Below, in pieces: positions 6,670 to 62,564 of a DNA stretch of 64,000 nucleotides. Location: the NCBI GenBank assembly GCA_049970495.1, contig JBMFMV010000001.1, positions 2,604 through 66,603 on the forward strand, in the 5' to 3' direction. The first letter of the stretch is position 1. Each line of letters starts with the position of its first letter. A program made the translations under genes and the position numbers. Below the pieces are notes generated by a model. That model was not told the origin of the DNA. It saw only the letters and a program-made list of their open reading frames with translations, and ran no database searches. The DNA comes from a bacterium (GTDB lineage: Bacteria; DUMJ01).

Positions 6670-8886
6670 TTATCCCTCTGAAATAATTCTATCCACCACT
6701 AACTGGCGAAATTCTGGGGAGAGACTACTAAAGTATGCACTAAAGCCAGTAACTCTAACTATCAAATCGGGGTATTTGCTTGGATCTTTATGTGCCTCTA
6801 GGATTTTATCCTTATCTATAATGTTTATATTAACCATAGTTCCGCCTAGATCAAAGTGTACCTTTATAAGATTAGCAATATTTTCTACTGCTTCCTTTTC
6901 GTCTTCAATAAGGGGATCAAGTTCGATCTGCATAGGGGCAGTATTGCCGTACCCAGGCTGAACACTTGCAATAGCTATGGCCATCGCAGTAGCTGCACCA
7001 TCATTCCTAAAACCCGGATCGGGATTAGCACCGTGAGATATAGGGTCACCAGCATACCTTCCATTAGGGGTAGCCCCTAAATTTCTACCCATAGGGATAG
7101 TATTTGCCCAGGAGAATAATCCTGGGATCATATTATACCCGTTAGGGGTAGGCTTCTCTTTAACCATCTTGGTAAACGTCTTAGAGATTCTAACAGCATA
7201 CTCATCGGAAATAGAACTACCGCTACCATATCTAGGGGTATTCCTCATTATCAATCTGATTCTTTCGCCATTTGGTCCAGCCCAGTTATTATCAAGATAG
7301 TACATCAGTTCCTGCCATGTTATCCTTCCCTCTTTTTCAACCCTCTCTTCAATCGCTCCAAAAGAATCAGCAACTGTAGCCAAACCTGCACCATCTACGC
7401 ACATATTATAAAATTCTACCCCTCCATGTGAGGCATCTAGACCTTTCTCTATGGGACCATGAGAACATAGGTCTAAGACTAGCTCCGGGAAAACTCTATG
7501 CATATACTCTAGGTGAAAATCCAACCCTTTAGCTATAGTATCTATGGCTATCTTCAAATGTTTGGTAAATCTATTCCACAACTCTTCAGTACTTGGATTA
7601 CATCCAGACTCCTGCATCATCTCACGGAGAGCAACATCAAATATTGTAGCAAAATTGATCTTTACACAATCCATTATTGTGTATTCTCTTCCCGGTATGC
7701 CATACCAATGACATCCTGCATATGCCCTCTCTCTAGCTATCTCTAAAGGATATCCATTTCTTGCAAACCCATTTACTACGCTATCCGCACCTAGAAACTT
7801 GGGAATTCCCATTTTATCATCAAGTAAAATCTCTACCCCCCTGTATAAAAGACCTCTATCTAATCCATCCCCAACACAGACACCTATATTAGTAGGGATC
7901 CTTAGTCTATGCGCTGCCTCTAAGATTAGATAAGAAAGAGGATTTGTTACGTCTCTACCCTCTCTATCATAACCCCCAAGTTGTATATATGCAGTATCTC
8001 TCAGTAAAAGACATACTATATGGAATATTGCCTCTTCATCGGTTAAGATTCCGGCATCCCTATCCCTCTTATAAAAAGGATAGAGTATTACATCGAGCCT
8101 TCCTAGAGAACCGCTACCATTATACATCCTAGCAGTTATTAAATACCAGAGTATCCATTGACATGCCTCTCTGAAAGTCCTAGGTGGTTCATTTACTAGT
8201 CTTTCATTCATCTTTGCTATCTCTAAAAGGTTCTTCTTTAATTCTGGATCTTCCTCATCCTGAGCCATAGACTTTGCCGTATTAGCAGTCCTATAAATCC
8301 AATCCTGAATCCCTAAAACTACAGATTCTAAACCATCATAAAATTCAGAGGATTCTGGATTATTCATCTTTCTATAGTATCTGATCTTATCTAAAATGCC
8401 TTTCCATCCTAATCTAAGTCCTATCTCCATATCCTGACAGAAATGCTGTGCTGCGCCAATACCTGTAACTAGCTGATATAATTTCTGCTCCCTATGAAGG
8501 TAGGAATAATCAAAATCTGGATTCCAATGAGGATTTCTATAGGACATAAAGTTGACCATATAAGCCCCAGCAAGAGAACTTATTGGGTCTATATATACAG
8601 GGTGCACCTCTAAAAGTCTCCTAAAGTTTTCACCACAAGATTTAGGCCCAAAGAATCCTCCACTCGGATGATTGGGAATAAATTTAAAGCTTTTTAATAG
8701 AACATCTGTTATGGGCATTCCAGAAGAACTAATCGTTTTTACTATTTCTCTTTCTTCCTGAGGAGGGAGGATCAGTCCCCAGTCATCATGGTCCATAAAA
8801 CCAACAATTTCCTGCTTTTCTCTTGTATGCTCCAATTTCTTAGCACGAAGCAGACCTATTCTCTCTTGATAAGTTAAAATAGCCAT
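6670..8886 (-). CDS. Glycyl radical enzyme of the PFL2/glycerol-dehydratase-like family, substrate unknown
   Basis: 738 aa. The C-terminal glycyl-radical motif VRVTGFSAYF is present. A single candidate active-site Cys lies in GCHWYGIPG, with no PFL-type CC pair. A GRE activase gene lies immediately downstream. Confidence 0.8.
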   Translation of the reverse strand: MAILTYQERIGLLRAKKLEHTREKQEIVGFMDHDDWGLILPPQEEREIVKTISSSGMPITDVLLKSFKFIPNHPSGGFFGPKSCGENFRRLLEVHPVYIDPISSLAGAYMVNFMSYRNPHWNPDFDYSYLHREQKLYQLVTGIGAAQHFCQDMEIGLRLGWKGILDKIRYYRKMNNPESSEFYDGLESVVLGIQDWIYRTANTAKSMAQDEEDPELKKNLLEIAKMNERLVNEPPRTFREACQWILWYLITARMYNGSGSLGRLDVILYPFYKRDRDAGILTDEEAIFHIVCLLLRDTAYIQLGGYDREGRDVTNPLSYLILEAAHRLRIPTNIGVCVGDGLDRGLLYRGVEILLDDKMGIPKFLGADSVVNGFARNGYPLEIARERAYAGCHWYGIPGREYTIMDCVKINFATIFDVALREMMQESGCNPSTEELWNRFTKHLKIAIDTIAKGLDFHLEYMHRVFPELVLDLCSHGPIEKGLDASHGGVEFYNMCVDGAGLATVADSFGAIEERVEKEGRITWQELMYYLDNNWAGPNGERIRLIMRNTPRYGSGSSISDEYAVRISKTFTKMVKEKPTPNGYNMIPGLFSWANTIPMGRNLGATPNGRYAGDPISHGANPDPGFRNDGAATAMAIAIASVQPGYGNTAPMQIELDPLIEDEKEAVENIANLIKVHFDLGGTMVNINIIDKDKILEAHKDPSKYPDLIVRVTGFSAYFSSLSPEFRQLVVDRIISEG

Positions 8887-8897
8887 ATCTATTCCTC

Positions 8898-9800
8898 CTA
8901 ATAGATTTTTTCTCTATCGATATATCTTCCCATCAAATCTTTAATCTTCTCTATATCCTCCTTTTTTGGAGGCTCTAGCTCTAAAATTCCTCTTCTATTA
9001 TTGAATAACCATGGCTTACTTAAGCCTAATTTGTGATAGGGTAAGAGCTTTACTCTTCTTACAGATTTAAGTTTGGCTATAAAATTGGCAACTGCTACTA
9101 TATTCTCTCTAGAATCATTATATCCAGGTATAATAGGGACCCTTATCTCTATCCATTTCTCTGCTCTATCTAGTCTGTAAAGATTTTCTAGTATTATCTC
9201 ATTTGGAACCCCTGTGAGCTTTTTATGTTCTTCTGAGTTCATATGTTTAATGTCGTATAAAAAGATGTCAACAAAAGGTAACAGGTCTTTAAGCTTATCC
9301 CAAGAGACAAAACCAGACGTGTCTAACGCTGTAGAGATACCATTCTCTTTACAAGACTTTAGTAGATCTAGACAAAAATCGAATTGAAAAGTTGGTTCTC
9401 CTCCGGAAAGTGTAACTCCTCCGGATTGTTTGTAAAAAGGGATATCTTTGATAACTTCATCTAAGACCTCCTCTAAATCATAAATTTTACCCTGTAATAC
9501 AATGGCTCTAGCCGGACAGGCATCTACACACTTAAAACAAAATCGACAGAACTTTTCATCATACTTCTTCCCCTTTAAATTATCATTCTGCAAAGCTCCA
9601 GTAGGACAGACTAGGACACAGGAATTACATCCTATACACTTGTGCCTATAGAACGCCAATTCAATCTTAGGGCTTATAGATTCAGGATTATGACACCAGA
9701 GACACCTTAAAGGGCAACCTTTAAAGAAGACAGTAGTTCTAATTCCTGGTCCATCGTGTAGAGAAAATCTCTGTATATCAAATATAATACCACTACTCAT
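8898..9800 (-). CDS. Glycyl-radical enzyme activating protein (radical SAM enzyme with an extra ferredoxin-like domain)
   Basis: CxxxCxxC radical-SAM motif in GCPLRCLWCHNPE. Two additional 4Fe-4S motifs are present: CIGCNSCVLVCP and CRFCFKCVDACP. The GGE SAM-binding segment is GGEPTFQ. Confidence 0.85.
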   Translation of the reverse strand: MSSGIIFDIQRFSLHDGPGIRTTVFFKGCPLRCLWCHNPESISPKIELAFYRHKCIGCNSCVLVCPTGALQNDNLKGKKYDEKFCRFCFKCVDACPARAIVLQGKIYDLEEVLDEVIKDIPFYKQSGGVTLSGGEPTFQFDFCLDLLKSCKENGISTALDTSGFVSWDKLKDLLPFVDIFLYDIKHMNSEEHKKLTGVPNEIILENLYRLDRAEKWIEIRVPIIPGYNDSRENIVAVANFIAKLKSVRRVKLLPYHKLGLSKPWLFNNRRGILELEPPKKEDIEKIKDLMGRYIDREKIY

Positions 9801-22395: not shown

Positions 22396-24042
22396 ATGTC
22401 TTTAGAGCATTATACTAAGACTGTAAAGGCAATGGATGAATCTATCTTTAAGGCCCTCGCAAGACAGGTCGAGGACCCTAATCGTTTTGACTATGGGGGG
22501 ATAGAAAAACCAAATTTAGGTTTAGCAGACTCAGAGTACGGGATAAATGACTTATTAAGTGTATATTTCTGTCCAGATTCCAAATTCTATCTCTCCGAAG
22601 AATTAAGGAAAAGATTGATCAGGGCTCTCGAATTCTTGATAAGAAATCAGCATGAAGATGGAACAATAGACCTCTACGAAACAAACTTTCATTCTCCACC
22701 AGATACCTCTTTTAGAGTATGGGTCTATGCCCCTTGGGTCGAATATCTAAGAAAAATAGGAATAGAAAAGGACATACTCTTTCTTCTAGAACACTTTCTA
22801 AAAAAGGCTATTCCAGCACTAAAGAGTGGAGGCTTTCATACTCCAAACCATAGATGGGTTCAGGCATCCGCATTAGCAAGATTGGGAACTCTATTTGGAG
22901 ATGATGAGTGTAAGCTTATCGCTAAAGAATATTTAGAGGAAGGGATAGACTGTAATAGAGATGGACTTTTCTATGAAAGAAGTCTAGGTGTTTATAACCC
23001 TATATGTGGTATAGCTATGCTATGGTTAGCTGAGGATTTAAAAATGCCAGAACTTGCAAACTATACTGAAAAGGTCTTAGACTTTGCCACTTACTTTCTA
23101 GAACCAGATGGGACACTCCTAAATACGTTTTCTCTTAGGCAGGATAGGGGCATTAGGATGCCTGCTGATGTTCGTTACTATTATCTGTTCAAGAAGATGG
23201 GCATTTTAAAGGGAAATGGCACATACTTATATGCAAGTGATGTGATTTTTGATGGTAACCTAAATAGATTAGGAGAAGGATTTAATCCCCTACATCTTTT
23301 CTTATTCTACCCTGAATTCAAAGATGAATCTATAGAGAGAAAACCTCTTCCAAGGTCTGGTATATTCTATTTTGAAAACAGTGGAGTAGTCAGGATAAAT
23401 TCAAATAAAAATAGCCTTACGTTTACAAAAGATAGCGATGAATTCTTAACAATAGTTTTTGGTGATGTGGATATAAGATTTCGTTATCTTACATCATTCT
23501 TTGGGAAGGGACCATTTGTTGGTTCATCCTTAGAGAAAGATGCCAATAGCTACAGCTTAAAGCAGAAGATCACTTGGGGTTATACAGACCTTCTTCCAAA
23601 AGAAGAAAGGGGAAAAGAAACCCAATGGAATAAGATGAATCACTCTTTGAGAAGATGGATAAAGATGCAGGAGATCTCTACAGAAATAACATTAAGTCCA
23701 GAAGATTTAGGAAGAGTTAAGCTTTCTATAAAGACAGAAGGATGTGAGAATGTCCTTTCAGCATTAGAGGTGGCATTACCAAAGGATGGGGAGGTAAGTT
23801 TTGAAGGAAAGGCGACAAGATTAAAAGAAGATATATTCCTATTGGAAGAAGGGAAACTTAGATATCAAAAAGAAAATTCGTTCTTCGAGATATCACCAGG
23901 GTCTAAGGCTCATAAATTGGTAGATTATAGGGGAGATAAATATTTAAAGCGTAAGGATAAAATTTATGTATTTATAACATTTCGTTCCCCATTTGAATAT
24001 ACCTTAGACTTCTCTTATGGAGAAATCTTTAAATTTGGCTAG
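22396..24042 (+). CDS. Hypothetical 548-aa protein, possibly an (alpha/alpha)-toroid polysaccharide lyase/heparinase-II/III-like fold. It appears co-transcribed with leuB.
   Basis: Long ORF beginning 3 nt after the leuB stop. There is no signal peptide. The composition is rich in aromatic residues, in the style of carbohydrate-active enzymes. The fold assignment is a guess. Confidence 0.4.
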   Translation: MSLEHYTKTVKAMDESIFKALARQVEDPNRFDYGGIEKPNLGLADSEYGINDLLSVYFCPDSKFYLSEELRKRLIRALEFLIRNQHEDGTIDLYETNFHSPPDTSFRVWVYAPWVEYLRKIGIEKDILFLLEHFLKKAIPALKSGGFHTPNHRWVQASALARLGTLFGDDECKLIAKEYLEEGIDCNRDGLFYERSLGVYNPICGIAMLWLAEDLKMPELANYTEKVLDFATYFLEPDGTLLNTFSLRQDRGIRMPADVRYYYLFKKMGILKGNGTYLYASDVIFDGNLNRLGEGFNPLHLFLFYPEFKDESIERKPLPRSGIFYFENSGVVRINSNKNSLTFTKDSDEFLTIVFGDVDIRFRYLTSFFGKGPFVGSSLEKDANSYSLKQKITWGYTDLLPKEERGKETQWNKMNHSLRRWIKMQEISTEITLSPEDLGRVKLSIKTEGCENVLSALEVALPKDGEVSFEGKATRLKEDIFLLEEGKLRYQKENSFFEISPGSKAHKLVDYRGDKYLKRKDKIYVFITFRSPFEYTLDFSYGEIFKFG

Positions 24043-24066
24043 GGGAAACATTCCCCTAGCCTTTTA
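24037..24066 (+). terminator. Rho-independent terminator of the leu-type operon
   Basis: Perfect 11-bp stem: ggctaggggaa at 24037-24047, loop aca, ttcccctagcc at 24051-24061. A TTTT run follows. The stem includes the TAG stop codon. Confidence 0.7.
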
Positions 24067-24380
24067 TAGACTAACCAGCTGGCACTTGTTCTATTATGAT
24101 TCTACGTGGATAGGAGATAGAAATCTCTTGATAATTGATATTCGTAATTACTCTAAATTTAGTTGATAAAGTGGCATAAATATTGATAATTACTTGTTTA
24201 GAATAGTCTATAACCAAGAGGAACATAGAAACAGGCATTAGACAATAAAATTGGAATCTTATCAACTATCTCTAGTAGCAATCACATAAATATTCAACTG
24301 GAAGCCTCTTTCGTTTGAGTTTGTATAAAATTTTAAGATATGAAGGACCTAAGTCTTATGGATTAGTGACTAGATTTTGG

Positions 24381-24416
24381 TATAAAAAATAAAAGGGGCT
24401 CTTATTGTGAGCCCCT
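24381..24416 (-). terminator. Rho-independent terminator downstream of the pilin gene
   Basis: 8-bp stem aggggctc / gagcccct with a 7-nt loop (24394-24416). On the minus strand it is followed by a TTTTATTTTTTATA tract (24381-24393). Confidence 0.7.
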
Positions 24417-24430
24417 AAGAAAAAAGGAGA

Positions 24431-24895
24431 TTAACGTCCACCAGTAAGCTGTAGGGGAAGAGTCGCTCCTCTAGCACCATAAAGGGTTAAAGTATAAGAA
24501 TTACCATTGGTTTCATATTTGATTACACCAGGTGCAACTGTTGCAGTTGTTCCTAGATAAAAAGTAGGAGAACTTCCTTCCACCTTACTCAAATATTCTT
24601 CCCCATTAAATGGATTTTTAGGCGCTGGTGAGACCAAACCTGCAAGCCCAGTAGATGTATTTGTTATATCGTCCTTAGTATCTGGATACCAAGGGGCTGT
24701 AACCCGGTTTGAAGCATACATCTCTAACCCAGTCTGTATTGCACGGGCGGCGTTCATAACACCAGTCTCCCTCGCCCTATCCTGAGCCCTAAATGTATAG
24801 GGTATTAAAACAGCAGCCAAAATACCTATAACCGCTATAACAATCATAAGCTCAATCAGTGTAAAACCTTCCCTACCTTTCAAAACTTTCCCCAT
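24431..24895 (-). CDS. Type IV pilin / pseudopilin-like protein (prepilin-type N-terminal cleavage and methylation domain)
   Basis: The N-terminus MGKVLKGREGFTLIELMIVIAVIGILAAVLIP carries the class III signal G|FTLIE with Glu at +5. Confidence 0.85.
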   Translation of the reverse strand: MGKVLKGREGFTLIELMIVIAVIGILAAVLIPYTFRAQDRARETGVMNAARAIQTGLEMYASNRVTAPWYPDTKDDITNTSTGLAGLVSPAPKNPFNGEEYLSKVEGSSPTFYLGTTATVAPGVIKYETNGNSYTLTLYGARGATLPLQLTGGR

Positions 24896-24999
24896 AAAAT
24901 TCCTCCTTTCTAATTTCAGTTTTTAAAAGTTTACAACTTATTAATTACCTTGTCAACTAATTGTTAAAACAAATCTAATAATAAAGCAATGACTAGAGG

Positions 25000-25383
25000 T
25001 CATACCTTTAGTTCTCCCTTTATTTCTTCAAAAGCCTTCTTGGCTAATCCCCCTGCTATATGTACACTCTCTTCCTCTTTTGCCTCTTCATGTATCCCCT
25101 TCTCAAGATACTCTAGAGCTTTATCAGGCTCTGCCCTCAGTATATTCCTAACTGTAGTTGTTGCTATCCCAAGCTCTTGTGCTATCTCTTCTGTAGTTTT
25201 ATTAAATATCTCTCTTAAAACAATAACCATCGCAGATTCAAACAGTGATGCCACCCAGGTAAGCTTCTTATATGTAATTATCTTCTTAGGTCCCCCAAGT
25301 ATCTCTACCGCCTTGTTAAACACCTTCATAGATAACTCATCTACAGATGGAACGTTTACACTAGTTGGTGTTACCTCCTTCAT
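25000..25383 (-). CDS. Small 127-aa protein with a predicted helix-turn-helix (TTEEIAQELGIATTTVRNIL), function unknown
   Basis: The ORF lies 4 nt downstream of the KaiC-like gene on the same strand. The HTH-like segment and an acidic C-terminus are visible in the translation. Confidence 0.5.
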   Translation of the reverse strand: MKEVTPTSVNVPSVDELSMKVFNKAVEILGGPKKIITYKKLTWVASLFESAMVIVLREIFNKTTEEIAQELGIATTTVRNILRAEPDKALEYLEKGIHEEAKEEESVHIAGGLAKKAFEEIKGELKV

Positions 25384-25387
25384 AACA

Positions 25388-26260
25388 TCACCTCCTTACA
25401 AGAGTTTCGATAGGACCTATTACTCTTATTACGCCTCGCTCATCTATCTCAATCAGATGTGTCCTTCTATCATGTCCGCACATCCTACAACCATCTATTC
25501 TTAAGGTATGTATTGTATCTCCTAAGGACCTATTATAGAGATTTGCCAATGCTTTACTTGAAAGGACCATCTTAGATAGGACTATCGTACAGTCTAGGAT
25601 ATGAGGGACAGCATATCCACCTGCAGCCTCTGCAGATTCTTCTTCATGACTGCTTCTCTTTTGAGAGATAAATATCGATGTTTGATAGTATCTTTTCATA
25701 ACCTCGTATAACTTTCTTACAATAGTCCTAGCCAGCATCTCTTTCCCTTCATAAAGACCAGTGATGGAGTCAACAATTGTTGATTTTATGTTATTATTCT
25801 CGATAGTCTCACTTATAACTCTATCGAGCTTTACTATATTGTCTCTTAGCTCCGGATATTTTGTCACATCCAAGACAAATATCCTATCTTCTATCTCATC
25901 CCAATCTATTCTCAAAGCCCTAGCCCTTTCTCTTAGGCTTTGGGCAAGGAAGGGCGTAGGTATTTCTACACTTACAAAAAGCACATTGTAACCTCTACTA
26001 GCCTGAGATAATGCAAACTGTTCACCCATAATGGATTTTCCAGTATCAGGAACACCTGTTATGTGTATTACCGCAGAGGAAGGAAATCCACCAAGAGGAA
26101 TCCTCCTTGGTTCATCCACATCATATTCAAAGGTGAAAAATAAATCGTCTAGCCCTGGAACACCAGAAGGAATTCCAAAAAGTTTAGGTATACTTTCTCT
26201 AATCTTGGACAAAGGCAGTGCCTCTGGAATGGTGCTATTAACGGTATCTTTTGCCACCAT
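25388..26260 (-). CDS. KaiC/RadA-like RecA-superfamily ATPase, single domain, 290 aa
   Basis: The Walker A motif is GVPDTGKS. The Walker B motif is hydrophobic followed by D (STIVDSITG). The overall KaiC/GvpD/ArlH-like layout is seen. Confidence 0.7.
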   Translation of the reverse strand: MVAKDTVNSTIPEALPLSKIRESIPKLFGIPSGVPGLDDLFFTFEYDVDEPRRIPLGGFPSSAVIHITGVPDTGKSIMGEQFALSQASRGYNVLFVSVEIPTPFLAQSLRERARALRIDWDEIEDRIFVLDVTKYPELRDNIVKLDRVISETIENNNIKSTIVDSITGLYEGKEMLARTIVRKLYEVMKRYYQTSIFISQKRSSHEEESAEAAGGYAVPHILDCTIVLSKMVLSSKALANLYNRSLGDTIHTLRIDGCRMCGHDRRTHLIEIDERGVIRVIGPIETLVRR

Positions 26261-26386
26261 AATCCATCACCTCCTCTTGGCAGTTAGAATTTAAAATATA
26301 AATTAGAACAACTTTCTAGTATATATTATACCAAAAATTGCAAGACTGTGGTAAAATAAAGGATAAAATTAGAAAGGAGATGAAGG

Positions 26387-27157
26387 ATGGCAAGACCTAC
26401 ATCTAGGGAGAGAAGAGAAAAGATCTTAGAATTACTTATAGAGAATAATAGTGTTAGAGTTTCTACCCTTTGTAAACTCTTTAATGTCAGTAGAGAAACT
26501 ATAAGGCACGACCTCTTTAAACTTCAGGAAGAGGGCTTAATTATAAAAGAGCATGGTTCAGCAACATTAAATAGAGAGTCTATATTAGATATAGACTTTG
26601 CTAAAAGGGCTAGAGAACATGTGGTTCAGAAGAGAAAGATAGGGATAGAAGCGGCAAAGCTTATAAAAGATGAAGAGACAGTAATCATCGATTCTGGAAG
26701 CACCACTCCACATATAGCAAGAAATATAAGAGATATAAAAAACCTTACAGTTATTACTCCATCCCTAAGGGTTACTGCAGAGTTGGGCGGTAAGGAAGGA
26801 ATAACTGTAATAATGCCGGGTGGAATATTTAACCCTATAGGATATTCTCTCTATGGACCACAGACAGAAGAATTCTTTACAAAGATAAATGCAAGTAAAT
26901 TCTTCCTAGCTATTCATGGTGTAGATGTAGAAAAAGGACTTACCGAGATAAACATACAGATAGCTCATCTAAAACAGGTAATGTTAAATAGTGCTAGAGA
27001 AGTAATACTAGTTGCTGATTCTAGTAAATTTGGAAGAGTAGAGTATGCAAGTGTTGCTCCATTAGAAAGGGTTAATACAATAATTACCGATAAGGATTTA
27101 GATGAAAAGATAGCGGAAGAGATTAGAAAGTTAGGAATAAATCTCATATTGGTGTGA
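26387..27157 (+). CDS. DeoR/GlpR-family transcriptional regulator
   Basis: The N-terminal HTH is RVSTLCKLFNVSRETIRHDL. The C-terminal DeoR sugar-binding domain is present (IIDSGSTT). Confidence 0.8.
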   Translation: MARPTSRERREKILELLIENNSVRVSTLCKLFNVSRETIRHDLFKLQEEGLIIKEHGSATLNRESILDIDFAKRAREHVVQKRKIGIEAAKLIKDEETVIIDSGSTTPHIARNIRDIKNLTVITPSLRVTAELGGKEGITVIMPGGIFNPIGYSLYGPQTEEFFTKINASKFFLAIHGVDVEKGLTEINIQIAHLKQVMLNSAREVILVADSSKFGRVEYASVAPLERVNTIITDKDLDEKIAEEIRKLGINLILV

Positions 27158-27165
27158 GGTGAAGA

Positions 27166-28950
27166 ATGAAAGAGAGGTTACCTTGGTTAGGGGTGTCTCT
27201 TATAATCTTTCTCCTTGTTACATCTTCGGCTTATGCAAAGAGCTATTGGCTTCCACAGGTAGATTGTAGAATAGATGTTATTGAGGATGGAAGTCTCAAA
27301 TGGGACTACTCCCTCAGATTCTCTTTTAAGGGCAAATTTTCATATGCCTATATTGACATACCTACTAAAGGGGTAATAGTAGGAGAGATCTCTGCAACTG
27401 AACCATTTACTATTGAGTCTAAAAATGACGCCATTAGGGTAAAGTGGAACTTCTCTGCAGAGAATGAGGACAAGATACTCAAGTTATCATACAAGATGAA
27501 AAAGGCTCTCAAGGTCTATAACGATATTGCAGAACTTTACTGGAAGGTCTGGCCCGAAGGTTGGGATGTAAAGGTAAGAAAACTAACAGTAAAAGTCTTT
27601 CTACCCAAGCCTGCCCTATCTAAAAGCCTATTATACGTATGGGGACATCCAAGACTGCCAGGAAGGGTAGATATCTTAGATACACTTAATGGCTTTTCCC
27701 TCGAGACCGAAGATATCCCTCCTCATCAGTGGGTTGAAATTAGGGCTCTCTTTCCAACAACGATTTTATCATTTTACGATGGGGCTAATAGGATCAATAG
27801 GAATATGCTAGAGAGTATCCTTAAAGAGGAAGAACGCTTTACAAAGGAAACAGAGAGAGAAAATCTCTACCTTTCAATTGCTATTATTGGTGCCTTAGGC
27901 ATTTTCCTCTCGATGATTGTAATTTTGGTATATCTCTACTTTATATACGGTAGAGAACCGAGGGTTAATTATCAAGCTATCTATGAGAGAGAAATTCCAT
28001 ATGATTATCCACCAGCTGTTGTAGGAGCTCTTATGGACTTAAGATCAATGTCCCCAGATCCAAAGGATTTTACAGCAACTCTGCTAGACCTTGTCCATAA
28101 GGGATATATAGATATGACCCCCGTGGGAGATGACTATCTACTTTCATTGAGAAGAGATAAAGATAGAAGTAAGTTAGAACCTTTTGAGATATACGTACTG
28201 GATTTTCTAGAGGGAATAACCTGGAAGGAAGAAGGTTTTTTATTCTCTGTCCTAAAGAGATATATAGAGCAAGACCCACTAAGATTCCAGAAGGTATATA
28301 AACAATGGGAAAATTCGGTAAAGAGTAAAGTCCAAGAGTTTGGATTCTTTGATAATAGAGGCTTTAGATTAGCTAACAAGATATCTACTTTATTTTTCGT
28401 CATGGGGTTATCTTTCTTAATACTCTATACAGTTCTTTTCAAAACTGGAAGGGCTTATTCTGTAGTTTGGAATCTCCTTATTGGAGCTAGTATTGGGCTA
28501 ATTATAAGTGGAATCCTAGGCGTTGTTATAACCATCGTCTTTAAGCCGGGGTTCAATAAGAGAACAGAAGTGGGAGCCTTACACTATAAAAGATGGGACA
28601 ATCTAAAGAGATTTCTGACTGATTTTAGTCAGCTAAAAAATATGCCCCCAGAGTCTATAATACTCTGGGAGAAGTATCTTATATATGGGATCTCTCTAGG
28701 AGTTGCAGATAAAGTTGCAAAGAGTATGAAGATACTTATGCCAGAAGTTTCAGAAGATATTAGTAGATCTCCAATACTACATTCATACGTTAGAGGAGCA
28801 GGGATTACATCTTTTGCTGGCATGCTAAATAGCTTCTCCTCCACAGTTCGTTCCGCCGCCTATTACTCTCCTTCCTCCGGTGGAGGTGGCGGATTCTCTG
28901 GTGGCGGAGGTGGTGGAGGTGGCGGTGGAGGTGGTGGAGGTGCAGGATAG
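27166..28950 (+). CDS. DUF2207-family membrane protein with a C-terminal Gly-rich tail
   Basis: Signal peptide, then an extracellular domain, then several TM helices, and a terminal SSGGGGGFSGGGGGGGGGGGGGGAG tail. Confidence 0.7.
   Translation: MKERLPWLGVSLIIFLLVTSSAYAKSYWLPQVDCRIDVIEDGSLKWDYSLRFSFKGKFSYAYIDIPTKGVIVGEISATEPFTIESKNDAIRVKWNFSAENEDKILKLSYKMKKALKVYNDIAELYWKVWPEGWDVKVRKLTVKVFLPKPALSKSLLYVWGHPRLPGRVDILDTLNGFSLETEDIPPHQWVEIRALFPTTILSFYDGANRINRNMLESILKEEERFTKETERENLYLSIAIIGALGIFLSMIVILVYLYFIYGREPRVNYQAIYEREIPYDYPPAVVGALMDLRSMSPDPKDFTATLLDLVHKGYIDMTPVGDDYLLSLRRDKDRSKLEPFEIYVLDFLEGITWKEEGFLFSVLKRYIEQDPLRFQKVYKQWENSVKSKVQEFGFFDNRGFRLANKISTLFFVMGLSFLILYTVLFKTGRAYSVVWNLLIGASIGLIISGILGVVITIVFKPGFNKRTEVGALHYKRWDNLKRFLTDFSQLKNMPPESIILWEKYLIYGISLGVADKVAKSMKILMPEVSEDISRSPILHSYVRGAGITSFAGMLNSFSSTVRSAAYYSPSSGGGGGFSGGGGGGGGGGGGGGAG
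28869..28950 (+). repeat. GGN trinucleotide low-complexity repeat encoding the poly-Gly tail
   Basis: The run ggtggaggtggcgg...ggtggtggaggtgcagga is directly visible in the sequence. Confidence 0.8.
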
Positions 28951-44799: not shown

Positions 44800-46173
44800 G
44801 TGAGTTTTACTCCGACACACTCTATAGACGAATTAAAGAGTAAATTTGATGATGTACTTGAACAGACAGTAAGGGTGGCAGGAAGGATTACTGCGATAAG
44901 AAGACATGGGAGGTCAATGTTTTTAGATATAAGAAACATAAAAGATAGGATTCAACTTTATGGGAAGGCAGACGATCTTGGAGATTCTTACGAAGAACTT
45001 AAAGAATGTCACGTAGGTGACTTTATCGGGGTAGAAGGGACTACATTTAAGACACATACAGGTGAGCCATCTATTAGGATATATAGGTTTTGGATTCTTA
45101 CTAAAGCATTAAGGCCATTACCAGAAAAGTGGCATGGGATAACGGATGTGGAGACTAGATATAGAAGAAGATACTTAGACCTTATAGCTAATGAAAATCC
45201 AAGAAGAATCTTTTTACTCCGATCTAAGCTTGTAAAAGAGTTAAGAAATTTCTTAGATGCAAAAGGTTTTATAGAAGTTGAGACCCCTATCCTCCATACA
45301 GTTCCCGGTGGTGGATTTGCTCGTCCTTTTATTACTCATCATAATGCCTTAGACATAGACTTATACCTTAGGATAGCCCTAGAACTGTATTTAAAGAGGC
45401 TTATAGTTGGTGGATATGAAAAGGTCTATGAGATAAATAGATGTTTCAGGAATGAAGGTATCTCTACTGTGCACAATCCCGAATTTACTATGATGGAGTT
45501 ATATCAGGCATATGCAGACTACTATACAATGATGGACCTCACTGAAGAGCTAATTATACACCTAGCAAATACACTATTCGGTAAGCCTGTTATATATAAA
45601 GATACCGAGGAAATAGATATATCTTCACCTTGGGAAAGGAAAGAACTCCTAGATATAGTTATTGAGCATACTGGAATAAATCCGTTGACACTAACTAAAG
45701 AAGAGCTTCTAGAATATGCCAATAAGCTAGAGATAAAAGTGACTACTGAGGAGAGTCTCTGGGCTAAAGTCCTTATGGAGCTCTTTGAGGAAGAGGTTCA
45801 GCCAAAGTTAAAAAAGCCGACATTTATCACTGGTTATCCTGTAGCTATCTCTCCACTTGCAAAAGCCAGAGAAAATGATCCTAGATTCACAGATAGGTTT
45901 GAATTGTTTATAGGGGGACTAGAAATTGCTAATGCGTTCTCTGAACTAAATGACCCTATAGAACAGAGGAAAAGGTTTGAGGACCAGTTAAGAGAAAAGA
46001 TGATGGGAGAAGAGGAGACCCATCCTATGGATGAAGACTTCTTAGAAGCTTTAGAGTATGGTATGCCCCCTACCGGAGGTTTAGGTATAGGGATAGATAG
46101 GCTTACTATGCTCTTTGCAAATGTAAACTCTATAAGAGAGGTGATACTGTTTCCTCTACAGAGGCCAGAATGA
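44800..46173 (+). CDS. lysS: Lysine--tRNA ligase (class II)
   Basis: An OB-fold N-terminus is present. Class II motifs include FRNEG and GGLGIGIDRL. The start is GTG with the RBS AAGGAGGT. Confidence 0.85.
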   Translation: MSFTPTHSIDELKSKFDDVLEQTVRVAGRITAIRRHGRSMFLDIRNIKDRIQLYGKADDLGDSYEELKECHVGDFIGVEGTTFKTHTGEPSIRIYRFWILTKALRPLPEKWHGITDVETRYRRRYLDLIANENPRRIFLLRSKLVKELRNFLDAKGFIEVETPILHTVPGGGFARPFITHHNALDIDLYLRIALELYLKRLIVGGYEKVYEINRCFRNEGISTVHNPEFTMMELYQAYADYYTMMDLTEELIIHLANTLFGKPVIYKDTEEIDISSPWERKELLDIVIEHTGINPLTLTKEELLEYANKLEIKVTTEESLWAKVLMELFEEEVQPKLKKPTFITGYPVAISPLAKARENDPRFTDRFELFIGGLEIANAFSELNDPIEQRKRFEDQLREKMMGEEETHPMDEDFLEALEYGMPPTGGLGIGIDRLTMLFANVNSIREVILFPLQRPE

Positions 46174-47537
46174 GTAAGCCTAGTAGAGTCTATAGATGTA
46201 CAGAGTGCGGTTATACAACCTCTCATTGGCTTGGTAGATGTCCAAACTGTGATTCATGGAATACGCTAGAAGAGGTTATACTAGAAAAGGGGATGGAAAA
46301 GACCAAATCGAGAAGCACCCCTACAAAAGCCCTAAGTCTCAACGAGATAAAGGCTAAGTCCATAGAGAGGATTACTACCGATTATCCTGAGACTGATAGA
46401 CTTTTAGGAGGTGGAGTAGTCCCCGGTTCTGTCCTTTTGATAGGGGGAGAGCCAGGAATAGGGAAGTCTACCCTTATGCTCCAGCTGTCAGAATCCTTCT
46501 CAAAAAAGGGGCTAAGGGTTTTATATAACTGCGCAGAAGAGTCTGTTTATCAGATAGGTTTAAGGGCTAGTAGATTGAATATCAAAGGGGAAAACATTAG
46601 GATAATAAGCGAGGTTAGTCTAGATAATGCAATAGCTACTTATGAAGAGGTTAAACCAGATATATTTATTATAGATTCTATTCAGGCGGTAAAAGATGAG
46701 TCTTTGCCTACTCAACCTGGAACAGTAACACAAATAAAGCTATGCACCTCTAAGATTATTGACCTAGCTAAAAGGGATAATAGTGTAGCCTTTATAACAG
46801 GACATGTTACAAAGGAAGGGATATTAGCAGGTCCTAAGACCCTAGAACATATGGTCGATGGAGTTTTCTATTTCGAAGGCGATAGGGACGGAATGGTAAG
46901 ACTCTTACGTGCAGTCAAGAATAGGTATGGGGATACAAATGAGGTAGCTTTTATGGAAATGACCCCTGAAGGACTCAAAGAGATGACAAACCCTTCGCTA
47001 TTCTTTGTTAGGGAAGGGCTGGGTTTAACTCCAGGTGCCACTATAGGTGTGATAATGGAAGGAACAAGGCCTATACTAGTAGAAGTTCAGGCTCTAGTGG
47101 CTCGTTCAGTGTATGCAGTTCCAAGAAGGGTTGTCCAAGGTATAGATTTTAATAGGTTTTCTTTTATACTGGCTGTTCTAGAAAAACTTTTACAGTTACC
47201 ACTTTTCAATAAGGATGTATTTTTAAATATACCCGGAGGAGTTACGGTAAAGGACCCTGCCATAGACCTACCAGTAGCCCTAGCAGTTATATCTAGTACT
47301 TTAGAGGTTCCACTAACTTCTGAGTTATTTAGCTTTGGAGAGATAGGACTTACTGGTGAGATAAGACAGGTAATGTGGTATGAAAAAAGGGTAGAGATAG
47401 CACTGAGATTAGGGTATAGTGAAGGATTTGTCCCGCTAAAAAAGAAAGAAGACAGTTCTGGTGTGAGAGGAGTAAGAACCTTAAAGGAGGTGTATGACTT
47501 AGTAAGAGATGCCAGAATCCACGCTAGACTTATATAG
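46170..47537 (+). CDS. radA: DNA repair protein RadA/Sms
   Basis: The N-terminal zinc finger is CTECGY..CPNC. The Walker A motif is GEPGIGKST. A C-terminal Lon-like domain is present. Confidence 0.9.
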   Translation: MSKPSRVYRCTECGYTTSHWLGRCPNCDSWNTLEEVILEKGMEKTKSRSTPTKALSLNEIKAKSIERITTDYPETDRLLGGGVVPGSVLLIGGEPGIGKSTLMLQLSESFSKKGLRVLYNCAEESVYQIGLRASRLNIKGENIRIISEVSLDNAIATYEEVKPDIFIIDSIQAVKDESLPTQPGTVTQIKLCTSKIIDLAKRDNSVAFITGHVTKEGILAGPKTLEHMVDGVFYFEGDRDGMVRLLRAVKNRYGDTNEVAFMEMTPEGLKEMTNPSLFFVREGLGLTPGATIGVIMEGTRPILVEVQALVARSVYAVPRRVVQGIDFNRFSFILAVLEKLLQLPLFNKDVFLNIPGGVTVKDPAIDLPVALAVISSTLEVPLTSELFSFGEIGLTGEIRQVMWYEKRVEIALRLGYSEGFVPLKKKEDSSGVRGVRTLKEVYDLVRDARIHARLI

Positions 47538-48606
47538 TGCACTAAAACTTACCGCTCCGGGAACTCCTCTAAGAGAAGGTTTAGATAGGATATTAAGCGC
47601 AAAAATGGGAGCCCTTATAGTAGTTGGTGGAAAATTAGAAGTCCTTAATAGTATTATGAGTGGCGGTTTTACTTTAAACTGTGACTTTACACCAGAATCT
47701 CTCTATGAGCTGGCTAAAATGGATGGAGCTATAGTAATCTCTGAAGACCTAAAAAAGATACTATATGCTAATGTTCAACTATCTCCAGATGTCTCTATCC
47801 CCACCACTGAACCTGGGACTAGACATAGAACAGCAGAAAGGACCGCTAAACAGGTTGGTTCTTTAGTCATAGCAATCTCAGAAAGAAGGGAGATAATATC
47901 TCTCTATATTGGAAATATAAGATATATTCTTCAAGATATAAGAAACCTGTTAGTTAAAGCTAACCAAGGGTTACAAGTCTTAGAGAGATATAGACTCATA
48001 TTAGATCAAGCAATGTCTAATCTTACCACACTAGAACTTGAAGATAGTGTCACCTTCCTTGATGTGCTTTGGAGTTTATATCGAATTGAGATGGTCCTTC
48101 GTATAGCTCAAGAGATAGAAAGATACGTAATAGAGTTAGGAGTTGAAGGAAGACTAGTCAGGATGCAGCTAGATGAGCTTATTGGAGGAGTAAATGAAGA
48201 GGAGATTCTCCTTATTAAGGACTACATAAGAGAGGGGCTAAATCCTGAGAGCATCAAAGAAGAGATAAGAAAGAAAAATCTAAATGAAATACTAAATACA
48301 AGTATAATGTCGAATATACTAGGTATATCCGATTCTATAACCTTTACAGATATAAATCTTAGGTGTAGAGGCTATAGAATCTTAAGTTATATAGCGCGTC
48401 TTCCTTCGTCTGTTATAGAGAATCTAATAAATTATTTTGGTAATCTACAAAATATCCTTAAGGCTGATATACCTCAGTTAGATGAGGTAGAAGGGATAGG
48501 GGAAATAAGAGCTAAAAACATAAAGGATGGTTTAAGAAGAATTAGAGAACAGAGTAGCAGAGGGATTCCTCCTCTCAGACTAGGAGACCTAGGGAGAGCC
48601 AGGTGA
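47509..48606 (+). CDS. disA: DNA integrity scanning protein DisA (diadenylate cyclase)
   Basis: The DAC domain is present (GALIVVGG, DGAIVIS). A C-terminal HhH is present. Synteny is canonical, directly after radA. Confidence 0.85.
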   Translation: MPESTLDLYSALKLTAPGTPLREGLDRILSAKMGALIVVGGKLEVLNSIMSGGFTLNCDFTPESLYELAKMDGAIVISEDLKKILYANVQLSPDVSIPTTEPGTRHRTAERTAKQVGSLVIAISERREIISLYIGNIRYILQDIRNLLVKANQGLQVLERYRLILDQAMSNLTTLELEDSVTFLDVLWSLYRIEMVLRIAQEIERYVIELGVEGRLVRMQLDELIGGVNEEEILLIKDYIREGLNPESIKEEIRKKNLNEILNTSIMSNILGISDSITFTDINLRCRGYRILSYIARLPSSVIENLINYFGNLQNILKADIPQLDEVEGIGEIRAKNIKDGLRRIREQSSRGIPPLRLGDLGRAR

Positions 48607-59706: not shown

Positions 59707-60294
59707 ATGACTAATAGGGAAAAGTATTTAGTAGGTATAATTATAATTCTAATTGGTGCTCTTCTTTTCTCTCTAAATAAGCCTGTTAAAGAGGAAAAGA
59801 AAGAGTCCTCTATTATTATTGAAGAAAAAGATAATAGTAAGATTAGCAATACAAAGGTTGCGGTTCATATAGGTGGTGCAGTGAAAAGTCCTGGTTTATA
59901 CTATCTACCAGCGAATTCAAGAGTTGCTGATGCTATCCAGACTGCAGGAGGACCAACTTCTGATGCGGACCTAGATGCAATAAATCTGGCAAGCAAAGTA
60001 ACTGATAGTTCAAAGATCTTAGTACCCTCTAAGGTAAGGGGGGTAAATGATATAGTAGCTGAGAAGACTCTTCAAGGCGAATCTTCTGAGCCTTCTAATA
60101 CCAAAATAAATATAAATACCGCAAGCGCCAAAGAGCTAGAAGAACTGCCAGGGATAGGTCCAGCCCTTGCCAATAGGATAGTCTCCTATAGGGAGACAAA
60201 TGGCCCATTTAAGAGTATAGAAGATTTAAAGAAAGTCTCAGGTATAGGTGAGAAAAGATTCGAGGCTATAAAGGATTTGATTGTTGTGGAATGA
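59707..60294 (+). CDS. comEA: Competence protein ComEA (HhH DNA-binding)
   Basis: N-terminal TM segment. The C-terminal tandem HhH is LEELPGIGPALANRIV...LKKVSGIGEKRF. Confidence 0.85.
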   Translation: MTNREKYLVGIIIILIGALLFSLNKPVKEEKKESSIIIEEKDNSKISNTKVAVHIGGAVKSPGLYYLPANSRVADAIQTAGGPTSDADLDAINLASKVTDSSKILVPSKVRGVNDIVAEKTLQGESSEPSNTKININTASAKELEELPGIGPALANRIVSYRETNGPFKSIEDLKKVSGIGEKRFEAIKDLIVVE

Positions 60295-61657
60295 GATAAA
60301 AAATAGACCAAGCGTTATTATTTTTCTTTCTATAGTTATTGGAACACTTCTATTTAGATATACTAATCTAATTTTTATTCCCTTTTTATTTTTAGGGCTG
60401 ACATTTCTCTTTATAGAAGAGAAGATAAGTCTTATTATAGTAATAATACTCTTGAGTGCATGGTGGACATCTAAAAACTATGAAAAATACATTAATTCGA
60501 TTAGAGAGATAGAAAAGATATCTAATGATGAAATCCGTATGGTCTGTTCTGTAAAAGATGCATCAAGGTATGGATTAAAGGTAGATAAGATAACAATAGA
60601 TAAAACAAGATATTACGGAGTATTAGAGGTAAAGGTAAGAGAAAACACCTATCAATATGGTGATAAGTTATATATAGTCGGAAAACTGTATAAAAATAGG
60701 GTAATAGACATAGACAAAAAGCTTTTTCAGGAGAGGATTATAGGGACAGTATACCCTAATAAGGTGAAAATTCTATCTAAACCCAGTTTTTCTCTTAAGC
60801 GGTCTCTTTATATTATAAGAACTAAAATAAGAGATAAGGTATCTCTATTTCTTAATCCTGAAGAGCGAGAACTTACTATGGCTATGGTCTTAGGGATAAG
60901 CGATGAACTCCCATATGATATATACAAGAACTTTAAAGTCACAGGACTCATTCACACATTAGTAGTATCAGGGGCACAGGTCTCTATAATCGTTTCTAGT
61001 ATAATACCTTTTTTAACAGGTTTACAGCTATTAATCTTATTTCCACTAGTTTTCTTGTATGCCCTTATCACCGGACTGGAGATAAGTGTAATAAGAGCAA
61101 GTATTATGATGGGTATAAATATTTTAGCCCGTATCATACATGAAGACTATGACCCTCCATCAAGTCTTGCATTTTCAGGTATAGTAATCTTACTTTTTGA
61201 TCCATTATCCATTTTTAGCTCAAGCTTTCAATTAAGCTTTTTAGCAACATTCAGCCTTATAAGTATTGCCCCTTATTTGAGAGTAAAAAGGCTAGACTTT
61301 ATGATGCCAACGATAACAGTCCAAGGGATTCTGGCTCCTCTACTTTTATACAAGAATGGTTCATTGCCTCTAATAAGCTTCCCAATAAATATAATAGTCT
61401 CCCCATTAATCTCCATCTTAACTATAGGTAGTTTTATTTTGGCGCTATCTACATTCACCTTCCCCTTTATTACTTATCTGATAAGTATTATAATAAAACC
61501 GATTATTCATCTCCTATTGCGTATAATAGTCTTTGGTAATAAAATGTCGTATGATATTAAGTACAGCCCTAGTATAATAGAATTGATAGCTACATATATT
61601 ATTATTGGAGGACTAATCTATATTGGATATACCAGATTATATAAAGACGATAAATGA
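60281..61657 (+). CDS. comEC: ComEC/Rec2-family competence membrane protein, short form without an MBL domain
   Basis: 458 aa polytopic membrane protein carrying the competence domain. Synteny is canonical, directly after comEA. Confidence 0.7.
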   Translation: MLWNEIKNRPSVIIFLSIVIGTLLFRYTNLIFIPFLFLGLTFLFIEEKISLIIVIILLSAWWTSKNYEKYINSIREIEKISNDEIRMVCSVKDASRYGLKVDKITIDKTRYYGVLEVKVRENTYQYGDKLYIVGKLYKNRVIDIDKKLFQERIIGTVYPNKVKILSKPSFSLKRSLYIIRTKIRDKVSLFLNPEERELTMAMVLGISDELPYDIYKNFKVTGLIHTLVVSGAQVSIIVSSIIPFLTGLQLLILFPLVFLYALITGLEISVIRASIMMGINILARIIHEDYDPPSSLAFSGIVILLFDPLSIFSSSFQLSFLATFSLISIAPYLRVKRLDFMMPTITVQGILAPLLLYKNGSLPLISFPINIIVSPLISILTIGSFILALSTFTFPFITYLISIIIKPIIHLLLRIIVFGNKMSYDIKYSPSIIELIATYIIIGGLIYIGYTRLYKDDK

Positions 61658-62564
61658 GTTAAAGTCTGGCGAAGTTTCTCATATATATGTATTAAGTGGA
61701 GACTGGGATTTCCTAAAAGATGATATAATCTCTAGGATCTATACATTCTTAAGATCTAAGGGTGATACGGTAATAATACGGACAGAGTCAGAGGTAGAGT
61801 TAGACAAAGAGATAAAAAATGCAAAGAGTGTCCTTATACCTACTGTAAAATTAATTATAGCAAGGCTTAATAGCCCTCCTAAGCTTAAAACCCTTCCTGA
61901 AGATATATATGTAGTTATAGATACAGATTCGATTATCAAGATACCTAGGAGTAAACAGGTAAATCTATCCCCCCCTAGTCCAAGAGAAGTTGATGTCTAT
62001 ATAAAAGAGATTATAAGAGGTTTAGCTAGATACTACAATAAAGTAATAGATGAAAGTTCCATAAGTATGCTTGCCTCTAGTCTTGTACAGGCTCCATATC
62101 TTCTCCTATCAGTATGGAATACCCTCCTACTTCTGACAGGAGATAAGGAGATTATAGAAGAGGCTGATATAAGAGAAGTAATGAAGAGTATCCCTACTCT
62201 TACTGGTTTTCAACTTATAGACCTATTAGAGAGAGGAAGAACACAAGAAGCCCTCTTCTTATTAAGAAAAGAATATTATCCAGATAGTGAAATAATGCAA
62301 TTACTTTCTGCTTTAAGAAAGAGATACAAACTTATCTTGTACGCAAAGACGATAAATCCTCAAGATACAGAACTGGCTAAATTTTTTAATATCTCTAGTG
62401 GATACGCAAGGTTTATTCTGAGCATAAGTAGAGATTATCCACTAGATAATCTGATACAAAAAATAAAACTCCTCCTCTCAATCGAGAGGAGGGTAAAGAC
62501 GGGGGAATTAAAACCAAAAGAAGGCCTAGAAGACTTTATTCTTTTCCTAGGCCTGAGCGATTAA
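61623..62564 (+). CDS. holA: DNA polymerase III delta subunit
   Basis: 313 aa. The N-terminal HIYVLSGD segment is present. Synteny is canonical, directly after comEC. Confidence 0.65.
   Translation: MDIPDYIKTINELKSGEVSHIYVLSGDWDFLKDDIISRIYTFLRSKGDTVIIRTESEVELDKEIKNAKSVLIPTVKLIIARLNSPPKLKTLPEDIYVVIDTDSIIKIPRSKQVNLSPPSPREVDVYIKEIIRGLARYYNKVIDESSISMLASSLVQAPYLLLSVWNTLLLLTGDKEIIEEADIREVMKSIPTLTGFQLIDLLERGRTQEALFLLRKEYYPDSEIMQLLSALRKRYKLILYAKTINPQDTELAKFFNISSGYARFILSISRDYPLDNLIQKIKLLLSIERRVKTGELKPKEGLEDFILFLGLSD

Follow-up and report, generated by a model that had tools for sequence, protein, structure and literature searches.

A thermophile KaiC-like ATPase and its helix-turn-helix partner precede a type IV pilin gene in an uncultured bacterium

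Within a 64,000-nucleotide stretch of contig JBMFMV010000001.1 from an uncultured bacterium (hereafter the window, whose numbering we use throughout), three genes on the minus strand encode, in the order of transcription, a KaiC-like ATPase, a small helix-turn-helix (HTH) protein and a type IV pilin precursor. The ATPase and the HTH protein constitute a conserved two-gene module that is apparently restricted to thermophiles and that is curated yet uncharacterised. What is new is where this module stands, namely before bacterial pilus genes in two lineages and clustered with the reverse gyrase gene in archaea. The identities of the genes, their layout and their comparative distribution are established; as to function, we tentatively favour a reading in which the pair works as a nucleotide-driven switch that acts through the HTH protein on targets differing by lineage, the pilin being the probable one here.

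The ATPase gene (26260..25388, minus strand, from the open reading frame (ORF) listing) encodes 290 residues that include the motif GVPDTGKS. The product scores 375.7 bits against the NCBIfam family TIGR03878 (thermo_KaiC_2, cut-off 232.2), covering profile positions 1-258 of 259, and matches the Pfam KaiC family PF06745 with an E-value of 1.3e-52; the runner-up family, TIGR03877, reaches 58.3 bits against a cut-off of 307. These scores bear out the description of a single-domain KaiC-like ATPase given in the first-pass annotation, and on sequence grounds we assign the protein to the KaiC family as a single-domain member of TIGR03878. Its Walker A motif (G69-VPDTG-K75-S76), catalytic glutamate (E99) and Walker B aspartate (D164) are invariant in 79 homologues and line up with the corresponding motifs of PH0284 and of the KaiC CI domain (residue numbers refer to full-length proteins; the alignments and structure models lack the initiator methionine and are hence numbered one lower). 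Because these residues are invariant and the nearest solved folds are PH0284, KaiC and PH0186, which are the top Foldseek matches of an AlphaFold2 (AF2) model with a predicted local distance difference test (pLDDT) score of 89.7, the enzyme is predicted to be catalytically competent. A further family motif, invariant or nearly so in the 79 homologues, runs D256-G-C258-R259-x-C261-G-H263-D264 and is accompanied by H205, H220 and C224; this Cys/His motif (residues 205-264) might be a site for metal binding or redox chemistry, next to a candidate arginine finger.

Several better-known relatives were tried as identities for the ATPase and rejected. A circadian KaiC is incompatible with a single domain of 290 aa and with scores of 41.1 bits on NF006799 (cut-off 408) and 16.4 bits on TIGR02655 (cut-off 546), and ArlH/FlaH with 28.8 bits on NF052589 (cut-off 215), 31.8 bits on NF004723 (cut-off 194), the absence of arl genes and the bacterial host. 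The possibility that the protein is a DNA-repair RadA paralogue, raised in the first-pass annotation as a way in which its proposal might fail, was likewise set aside, as the RadA/Sms model TIGR00416 gives 21.5 bits against a cut-off of 403 and the RadA/RadB models TIGR02237 and NF003301 give 33.8 against 172 and 16 against 259, respectively; a likely separate radA/sms gene, a candidate with an N-terminal Zn ribbon that adjoins disA, was found at 46170-47537 by the Pfam scan (the two genes together occupy 46170-48606). GvpD was also rejected, no GvpD model appearing among the Pfam/NCBIfam matches at E<=0.1, and we take it that these libraries do contain such a model.

The gene for the HTH partner (25383..25000, minus strand, ORF listing) starts 4 nt past the ATPase stop codon and thus has the position next to a KaiC-domain gene that characterises TIGR03879. 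Its all-helical, 127-aa product scores 106.5 bits against this NCBIfam family (near_KaiC_dom, "probable regulatory domain", cut-off 65.1) and 28.4 bits against the sigma-70 region-4-type HTH family PF08281 (cut-off 25.7), and it also matches the DeoR DNA-binding domain. Three segments, LTW (41-43), TVRNIL (77-82, the presumed recognition helix) and H-x-AGGL (108-113), are invariant in 31 homologues that extend from Bacteria to Archaea. The archaeal partners were additionally seen to carry a C-terminal domain of ~80 aa.

To place the pair in context we considered the confirmed relatives of the ATPase, 555 in a genome collection and 401 in a metagenome collection, examining the best 80 of each and adding extra loci through exact-protein look-ups, for ~170 related loci altogether (L numbers below). 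The HTH partner lies directly downstream of the ATPase in 42 of 81 genome loci and 49 of 80 metagenome loci, separated from it by 4 nt or overlapping it, so that the neighbourhood comparison proposed in the first-pass annotation does reveal a genuine conserved pair. When the flanking ORFs of ~75 loci were clustered by BLAST, the HTH partner was the sole neighbour shared across lineages, the remaining synteny being lineage-specific, and we therefore regard the ATPase-HTH pair as the unit. The pairing itself is not new but corresponds to the curated TIGR03878/TIGR03879 module: the window pair is identical to it in kind, with scores above the cut-offs, adjacent genes and translational coupling, and the novelty is confined to what lies downstream, which is a stand-alone pilin in the window's genus, a pilus operon in Caldatribacterium and, in archaea, reverse gyrase. 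The TIGR03878 model is labelled a hypothetical equivalog and TIGR03879 a domain, with a functional assignment attached to neither, and a literature search found no relevant publications on TIGR03878, TIGR03879 or AF_0795. Named ATPase relatives come from Caldatribacterium, Ammonifex, Thermanaeromonas, Aquificota, Fervidibacter and hydrothermal archaea, all of them thermophiles or hydrothermal samples; TIGR03878 as a whole is presumably confined to thermophiles.

Some ATPases of the family stand apart from the HTH gene. The partner does not adjoin the Bacillota copies (L006-L009, L011, L012, L015, L018, L022) or most Aquificota copies, and these partner-less relatives are up to 67% identical to the window ATPase. 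One of the Bacillota loci (L006) has a gene that starts MITVRDAMNIGDL and that we take to have the look of a PucR-family regulator, and nine Aquificota loci encode an unrelated 71-aa protein that by eye resembles an XRE-type HTH protein.

The third gene, at 24895..24431 (minus strand, ORF listing), begins 104 nt after the HTH gene and encodes a stand-alone type IV pilin precursor of 154 aa. Its N-terminus, MGKVLKGREG|FTLIELMIVIAVIGILAAVLIPY, has the form of a class III signal (G10|F11, with E15) with a hydrophobic alpha1-N helix, and the scores of 32.3 bits against PF07963 (N_methyl, cut-off 21.2) and 32.1 bits against TIGR02532 (cut-off 16.3) agree with the earlier description of a canonical class III signal pilin. 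Judged by these features, the protein is a canonical type IV pilin precursor, of the kind that a prepilin peptidase would cleave and methylate before assembly into a filament. More specific pilin classes were rejected (GspG, 47.8 bits against 88.85; PilA_Myxo, 40.9 against 400; ComGC, 36.3 against 75), the GspG, PilA and ComGC profile matches being confined to N-terminal residues 9-79. A phmmer search with the window pilin returned matches confined to the window's own genus, where orthologues in three loci (L002, L004, L087) are 67-75% identical and the ATPases of the same loci 86-88%. The other genes expected of a pilus are lacking near the pilin, as the first-pass annotation had remarked, and this extends to the whole 64 kb: Pfam scans of ~46 ORFs (1-64 kb) turned up neither T2SSE nor T2SSF, nor any PilM/N/O, secretin or A24 peptidase, and a relaxed scan for class III signals returned 24895..24431 as the lone pilin of the window.

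The minus-strand order with gaps of 4 nt (ATPase-HTH) and 104 nt (HTH-pilin) was confirmed by the ORF listing, and a strong Shine-Dalgarno sequence precedes each gene. Upstream of the ATPase-HTH operon, a consensus scan located a promoter-like site at 26354..26325 (minus strand, TTACCA-18-TATAAT with TGG directly before the -10), of which the -35, the extended -10 and the subsequent TAGAAAGT are kept in five orthologous loci (L002, L003, L004, L005, L087); from its sequence this site probably acts as a promoter. The same scan placed a second promoter-like site within the 104-nt gap, before the pilin (24956..24928, minus strand, TTGACA-17-TAAACT), with a counterpart TTGACA-17-TAGAAT in L087 and -10-like hexamers in L002 and L004, and, past the pilin at 24416..24394 (minus strand), a hairpin of 8 bp (6 G-C pairs) and a T-run that together resemble an intrinsic terminator, in line with the terminator already ascribed to this gene. 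Since the consensus scan detected no terminator in the HTH-pilin gap, read-through into the pilin from the promoter of the pair is possible. The gap had no Rfam match at the gathering threshold nor at E up to 1, and its fold stability was no better than that of shuffled sequence (z-score +0.62).

Across the window's genus, the order GH4-GH3-DUF2207-DeoR followed by the divergent ATPase-HTH pair is syntenic, and the pair plus the pilin is kept as a block in the window and in L002, L004, L087-L092 and L094. The DNA past the pilin varies, with leu genes in the window and TetR and MFS genes in L002 and L087, and the persistence of the block despite these differences counts for the pilin being linked to the switch. 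A second association was found in Caldatribacterium, where the pair heads a pilus operon at seven loci (L014, L019, L028, L095, L114, L173, L174): it is followed by a GspH-like minor pilin, three small pilin-like genes, PilM, PilN, PilO, a 167-aa gene, the PilQ secretin, a 294-aa gene, aroK and aroB, with gaps of 8-15 nt or overlaps that indicate one operon. In the complete SIUC1 genome (L014:3280-5900) this operon is preceded by a 16S rRNA gene and a tRNA-Ala gene (both recognised by eye) and by a frame-shifted integrase-like remnant, and at L019 the ~2 kb upstream of it are without long ORFs. When the ATPases were placed on a neighbour-joining tree, the pilin-less L085 and L082, the Bacillota copies, L010 and L013 came to lie between the two pilin-linked clades; given this separation, and given that the pilins are not orthologous, the two adjacencies look independent. 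Besides these two groups, a single true pilin-like gene (L056) was present in ~1.3 Mb of flanking DNA. Two further candidates were discarded, L103 because the flagged gene encodes a 404-aa permease and L033 as a false positive.

A different gene follows the pair in archaea. At five loci the gene directly downstream, on the same strand, is reverse gyrase (L032:6001-10648, L058:6001-10810, L163:4001-8017, L164:305-2629 and L169:1214-6032). The TIGR01054 model scores 1007-1258 bits on three of these reverse gyrases and 250 bits on that of L164, where the gene is incomplete at the contig end, and the L163 gene was recognised by tblastn only; at the four loci measured (all except L163) the gap between pair and reverse gyrase is -11 to 80 nt. 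Among the five loci, ATPase identity is only 60-78%, and no similarity could be detected in the 3.9 kb upstream, from which it follows that the trio is the sole conserved block, and that the module is a portable unit placed before differing genes. This adjacency fits a portable regulator with variable outputs. It also fits the apparent restriction of the family to thermophiles, the heat-shock induction reported for a KaiC-domain gene and the regulator beside it in Pyrococcus furiosus (PMC10746257), and the prediction that archaeal type IV pilus loci are regulated by KaiC-family ATPases with the help of a second component (PMC4858521). A literature search found no publication combining "reverse gyrase" and "KaiC-like".

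How such a switch might work can be sketched by analogy with KaiC-KaiB, GvpD-GvpE and CirA, from which the hexamer, the ATPase-HTH contact, the DNA binding and the control of the pilin are all inferred. The ATPase would probably form a hexamer, as PH0284 and KaiC do, and its nucleotide or autophosphorylation state would gate the freedom of the HTH partner to act on transcription. The partner would then act on its own operon and on genes just downstream, the controlled genes varying by lineage and tending to sit directly after the pair. In the window, the pilin would be reached via read-through from the promoter of the pair, from its own promoter, or by both routes; the pilin as a target of the switch is plausible, and unproven.

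A number of observations weigh against this model, and most of them speak at the same time for another possibility, that the pair is a general thermophile regulator (of heat stress, for example) and the pilin an independent gene brought next to it by chance at a variable boundary of synteny. Clustering the ATPases at 80% identity yielded 30 pair-bearing clusters, and the pilin adjoins the pair in only two of these lineages, the window's genus and Caldatribacterium; in the other 28 the pair occurs without it, so that, by the refuting condition set in the first-pass annotation, the idea of a pilin-dedicated system fails. Even within the window's genus the pilin is missing after the pair in L003 and L005, both of which have a rearrangement breakpoint exactly where the HTH gene and the pilin would meet. 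In L005 the pair runs straight into a segment that lies at 62.9-58.0 kb of the window (rpsT, holA, comEC, comEA, leuS), and this places the breakpoint. We observed, at L005:7300-12200, the comEC-holA-rpsT segment joined directly to the HTH gene, the pair thus marking a breakpoint within the genus. The nearest outgroups also have other genes after the pair, a secreted 186-aa protein and a ZIP transporter in L082-L084 (~74% ATPase identity) and an energy-coupling factor (ECF) S-component in L085 (82% ATPase identity), and synteny is also lost beyond the pilin. A promoter-like site and a terminator-like hairpin of its own flank the pilin gene, and it is common, in archaea at least, for a major pilin gene to stand alone (PMC4858521).

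The search for a shared operator was equally unfavourable to the switch model and is also what coincidence would lead one to expect. Alignment with orthologues revealed no motif common to the promoter regions of the pair and of the pilin, and k-mer enrichment in the 160 nt upstream of 51 non-redundant pair loci, compared with 45 partner-less loci, returned AT-rich words only and no conserved operator word. The invariance of T77-VRNIL-82 is, going by the alignment, unusual for a factor with lineage-specific operators, and the invariant residues of the HTH partner may instead be contacts to the ATPase or to a universal ligand; the invariant TVRNIL helix and the missing shared operator are the main unexplained points of the regulator model. 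As the hypothesis arose from the window itself, the fair test is the chance of finding one further independent adjacency, for which we estimate a probability of ~0.07-0.25 (with ~14-29 lineages and a pilus-gene background of 0.5-1%), so that the second adjacency is suggestive and not decisive. Coincidence has in turn to accommodate the seven Caldatribacterium loci at which the pair is operonic with pilus genes, the rarity of pilin-like genes in the flanks elsewhere (L056 alone in ~1.3 Mb) and the absence of a terminator between the HTH gene and the pilin. We consider it quite possible, and the regulatory link to the pilin that was first proposed is accordingly left in part: it gains from the independent pair-pilus operon of Caldatribacterium and loses from the 28 of 30 lineages in which the pair has no pilin beside it.

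Other readings give the pair a different kind of work. It might act on DNA itself, as a RecA-superfamily ATPase with a non-sequence-specific DNA binder that would work alongside reverse gyrase in archaea and, in bacteria, alongside the pili of DNA uptake (competence). In keeping with this are the RecA type of the ATPase, the likeness of the partner to DnaA domain IV, with an invariant helix, and the neighbours that handle DNA topology or DNA uptake. The profile scores, however, are those of the KaiC family and far from RadA, RadB, RecA and DnaB, the window encodes its candidate RadA/Sms, ComEA and ComEC at other positions, and the matches of the partner to sigma-70 region 4 and to the DeoR DNA-binding domain are to HTHs of the transcription type, and we judge this reading unlikely. 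That the ATPase serves the pilus machine as a structural or energising accessory, and not as a regulator, in the manner of ArlH with ArlI in the archaellum, seems to us very improbable: ArlH is KaiC-like and binds the motor ATPase (PMC5019145 and the preprint 10.1101/2021.03.19.436134), and in Caldatribacterium the pair shares one operon with assembly genes, but the ArlH models reach 23-32 bits where their cut-offs stand at 194-215, the pair occurs mostly without pilus genes and in archaea with reverse gyrase, no PilB- or PilC-type gene lies beside it in the window or in the Pfam-annotated Caldatribacterium loci, and its constant partner is an HTH protein. A bolder version of the regulatory switch, which we regard as doubtful, would make the pair a thermophile sensor of temperature or energy state whose HTH protein switches heat-adaptive genes, namely reverse gyrase in archaea and, in bacteria such as the present host and Caldatribacterium, those for type IV pili; turnover or autophosphorylation of the KaiC-like ATPase would then report the state of the cell to the HTH partner.

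The switch that we tentatively favour has several partial precedents. KaiC-family ATPases have been predicted to regulate archaeal type IV pilus loci via a second component (PMC4858521), and the archaeal families arCOG01171, arCOG01174 and arCOG01175 described there (Makarova, Koonin and Albers 2016) likewise place a KaiC-family ATPase in or beside type IV filament loci, in one case with a small alpha-helical second component through which the ATPase was proposed to signal. Those cases are archaeal, belong to other KaiC subfamilies and have KaiB-like or DEATH-like partners, whereas the window combines a bacterial host, a bacterial GFTLIE-type pilin and an HTH partner. CirA, which is KaiC-like and represses archaellum-driven motility (PMC10983859), and ArlH resemble the window ATPase in being KaiC-like with a single domain and in their association with a type IV filament system, but they are found in arl clusters without a TIGR03879-type partner, and ArlH acts on the motor ATPase and not on transcription. 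In the GvpD-GvpE system of haloarchaeal gas vesicles, which PMC4858521 also mentions, a KaiC-type P-loop NTPase modulates the activity of a small transcription factor from a nearby gene; partner fold and target genes differ from those of the window pair, which has no GvpD or GvpE family match at E<=0.1. In Pyrococcus furiosus, the KaiC-domain gene PF1931 and the adjacent PF1932, a predicted regulator, are reported to be heat-shock-induced targets of Phr with strong induction (PMC10746257), and this is again a KaiC-domain gene adjoining a predicted regulator in a hyperthermophile, with no pilin link reported there. Cyanobacterial KaiC shares with the window ATPase the RecA-like KaiC domain, the Walker motifs and the catalytic glutamate, but it has two such domains in ~500 aa in total where the window protein has one in 290 aa, and the Pfam scan found no KaiA or KaiB genes among the immediate neighbours of the window pair. 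The curated pair, the ordinary stand-alone pilin and a link between KaiC and type IV filaments, predicted for archaea, are thus already known; the two placements, before bacterial pilus genes and before reverse gyrase, were not found in our literature search, whose coverage did not extend to the Makarova 2017 review on KaiC-like hubs.

The remainder of the window encodes (Pfam) functions in sugar and leucine metabolism, uvrABC, tRNA synthetases and the competence proteins comEA and comEC, with comEA-comEC-holA at 59707-62564. The host is an uncultured metagenome-assembled genome labelled "bacterium", whose UvrB is 67-69% identical to those of the best named organisms, which come from several phyla. 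The DeoR regulator gene (26387..27157, plus strand, Pfam) is indeed transcribed divergently from the ATPase, as the first-pass annotation had stated, but it belongs to a sugar-utilisation block, DeoR-DUF2207-GH3-GH4, that is syntenic in all genomes of the window's genus, and so adds nothing to the regulatory case made for it. In the same block, the DUF2207 membrane protein (27166-28950, plus strand) ends in a long glycine run (SSGGGGGFSGGGGGGGGGGGGGGAG) and is 75-78% identical across the genomes of the genus, compared with 85-92% for the neighbouring genes. On the other side of the pilin, a 548-aa ORF (22396-24042, plus strand) starts 3 nt past an isocitrate/isopropylmalate-dehydrogenase-like gene that ends a leu-type operon; it had no match in Pfam, NCBIfam or PADLOC and is closed by a strong terminator at 24037-24061. 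The ~330 nt between this terminator and the convergent one of the pilin contain no ORF of at least 110 aa and only one of 64 aa (24071-24265). Further away lie a DDE transposase gene (PF01609; 4143-5063, plus strand) and, near it, a glycyl-radical enzyme (PFL-like plus Gly_radical) with its radical S-adenosylmethionine (SAM) activase (6670-9800, minus strand). Neither the ATPase nor the pilin had a PADLOC match, and those of the HTH partner were weak and at HTH level only; a defence-system reading was rejected on this result.

Single-domain KaiC-like ATPases are abundant in archaea and thermophiles and have been proposed to be signalling hubs, with outputs known for almost none of them. With a fixed HTH partner and a few recurring downstream genes, this family narrows the general proposal to specific regulator-target pairs that can be put to the test. 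Should the pilin link prove illusory, what the window contains is no more than a typical representative of a curated family and, next to it, a typical stand-alone pilin. If it is true, the association between KaiC-family proteins and pili that has been predicted in archaea would extend to bacteria and would offer a handle on how thermophiles control piliation, and the link to reverse gyrase would bear on the control of the signature enzyme of hyperthermophiles. Were the sensor reading to be correct, the pair would represent the first bacterial KaiC-type pilus regulator and, in archaea, a candidate regulator of reverse gyrase.

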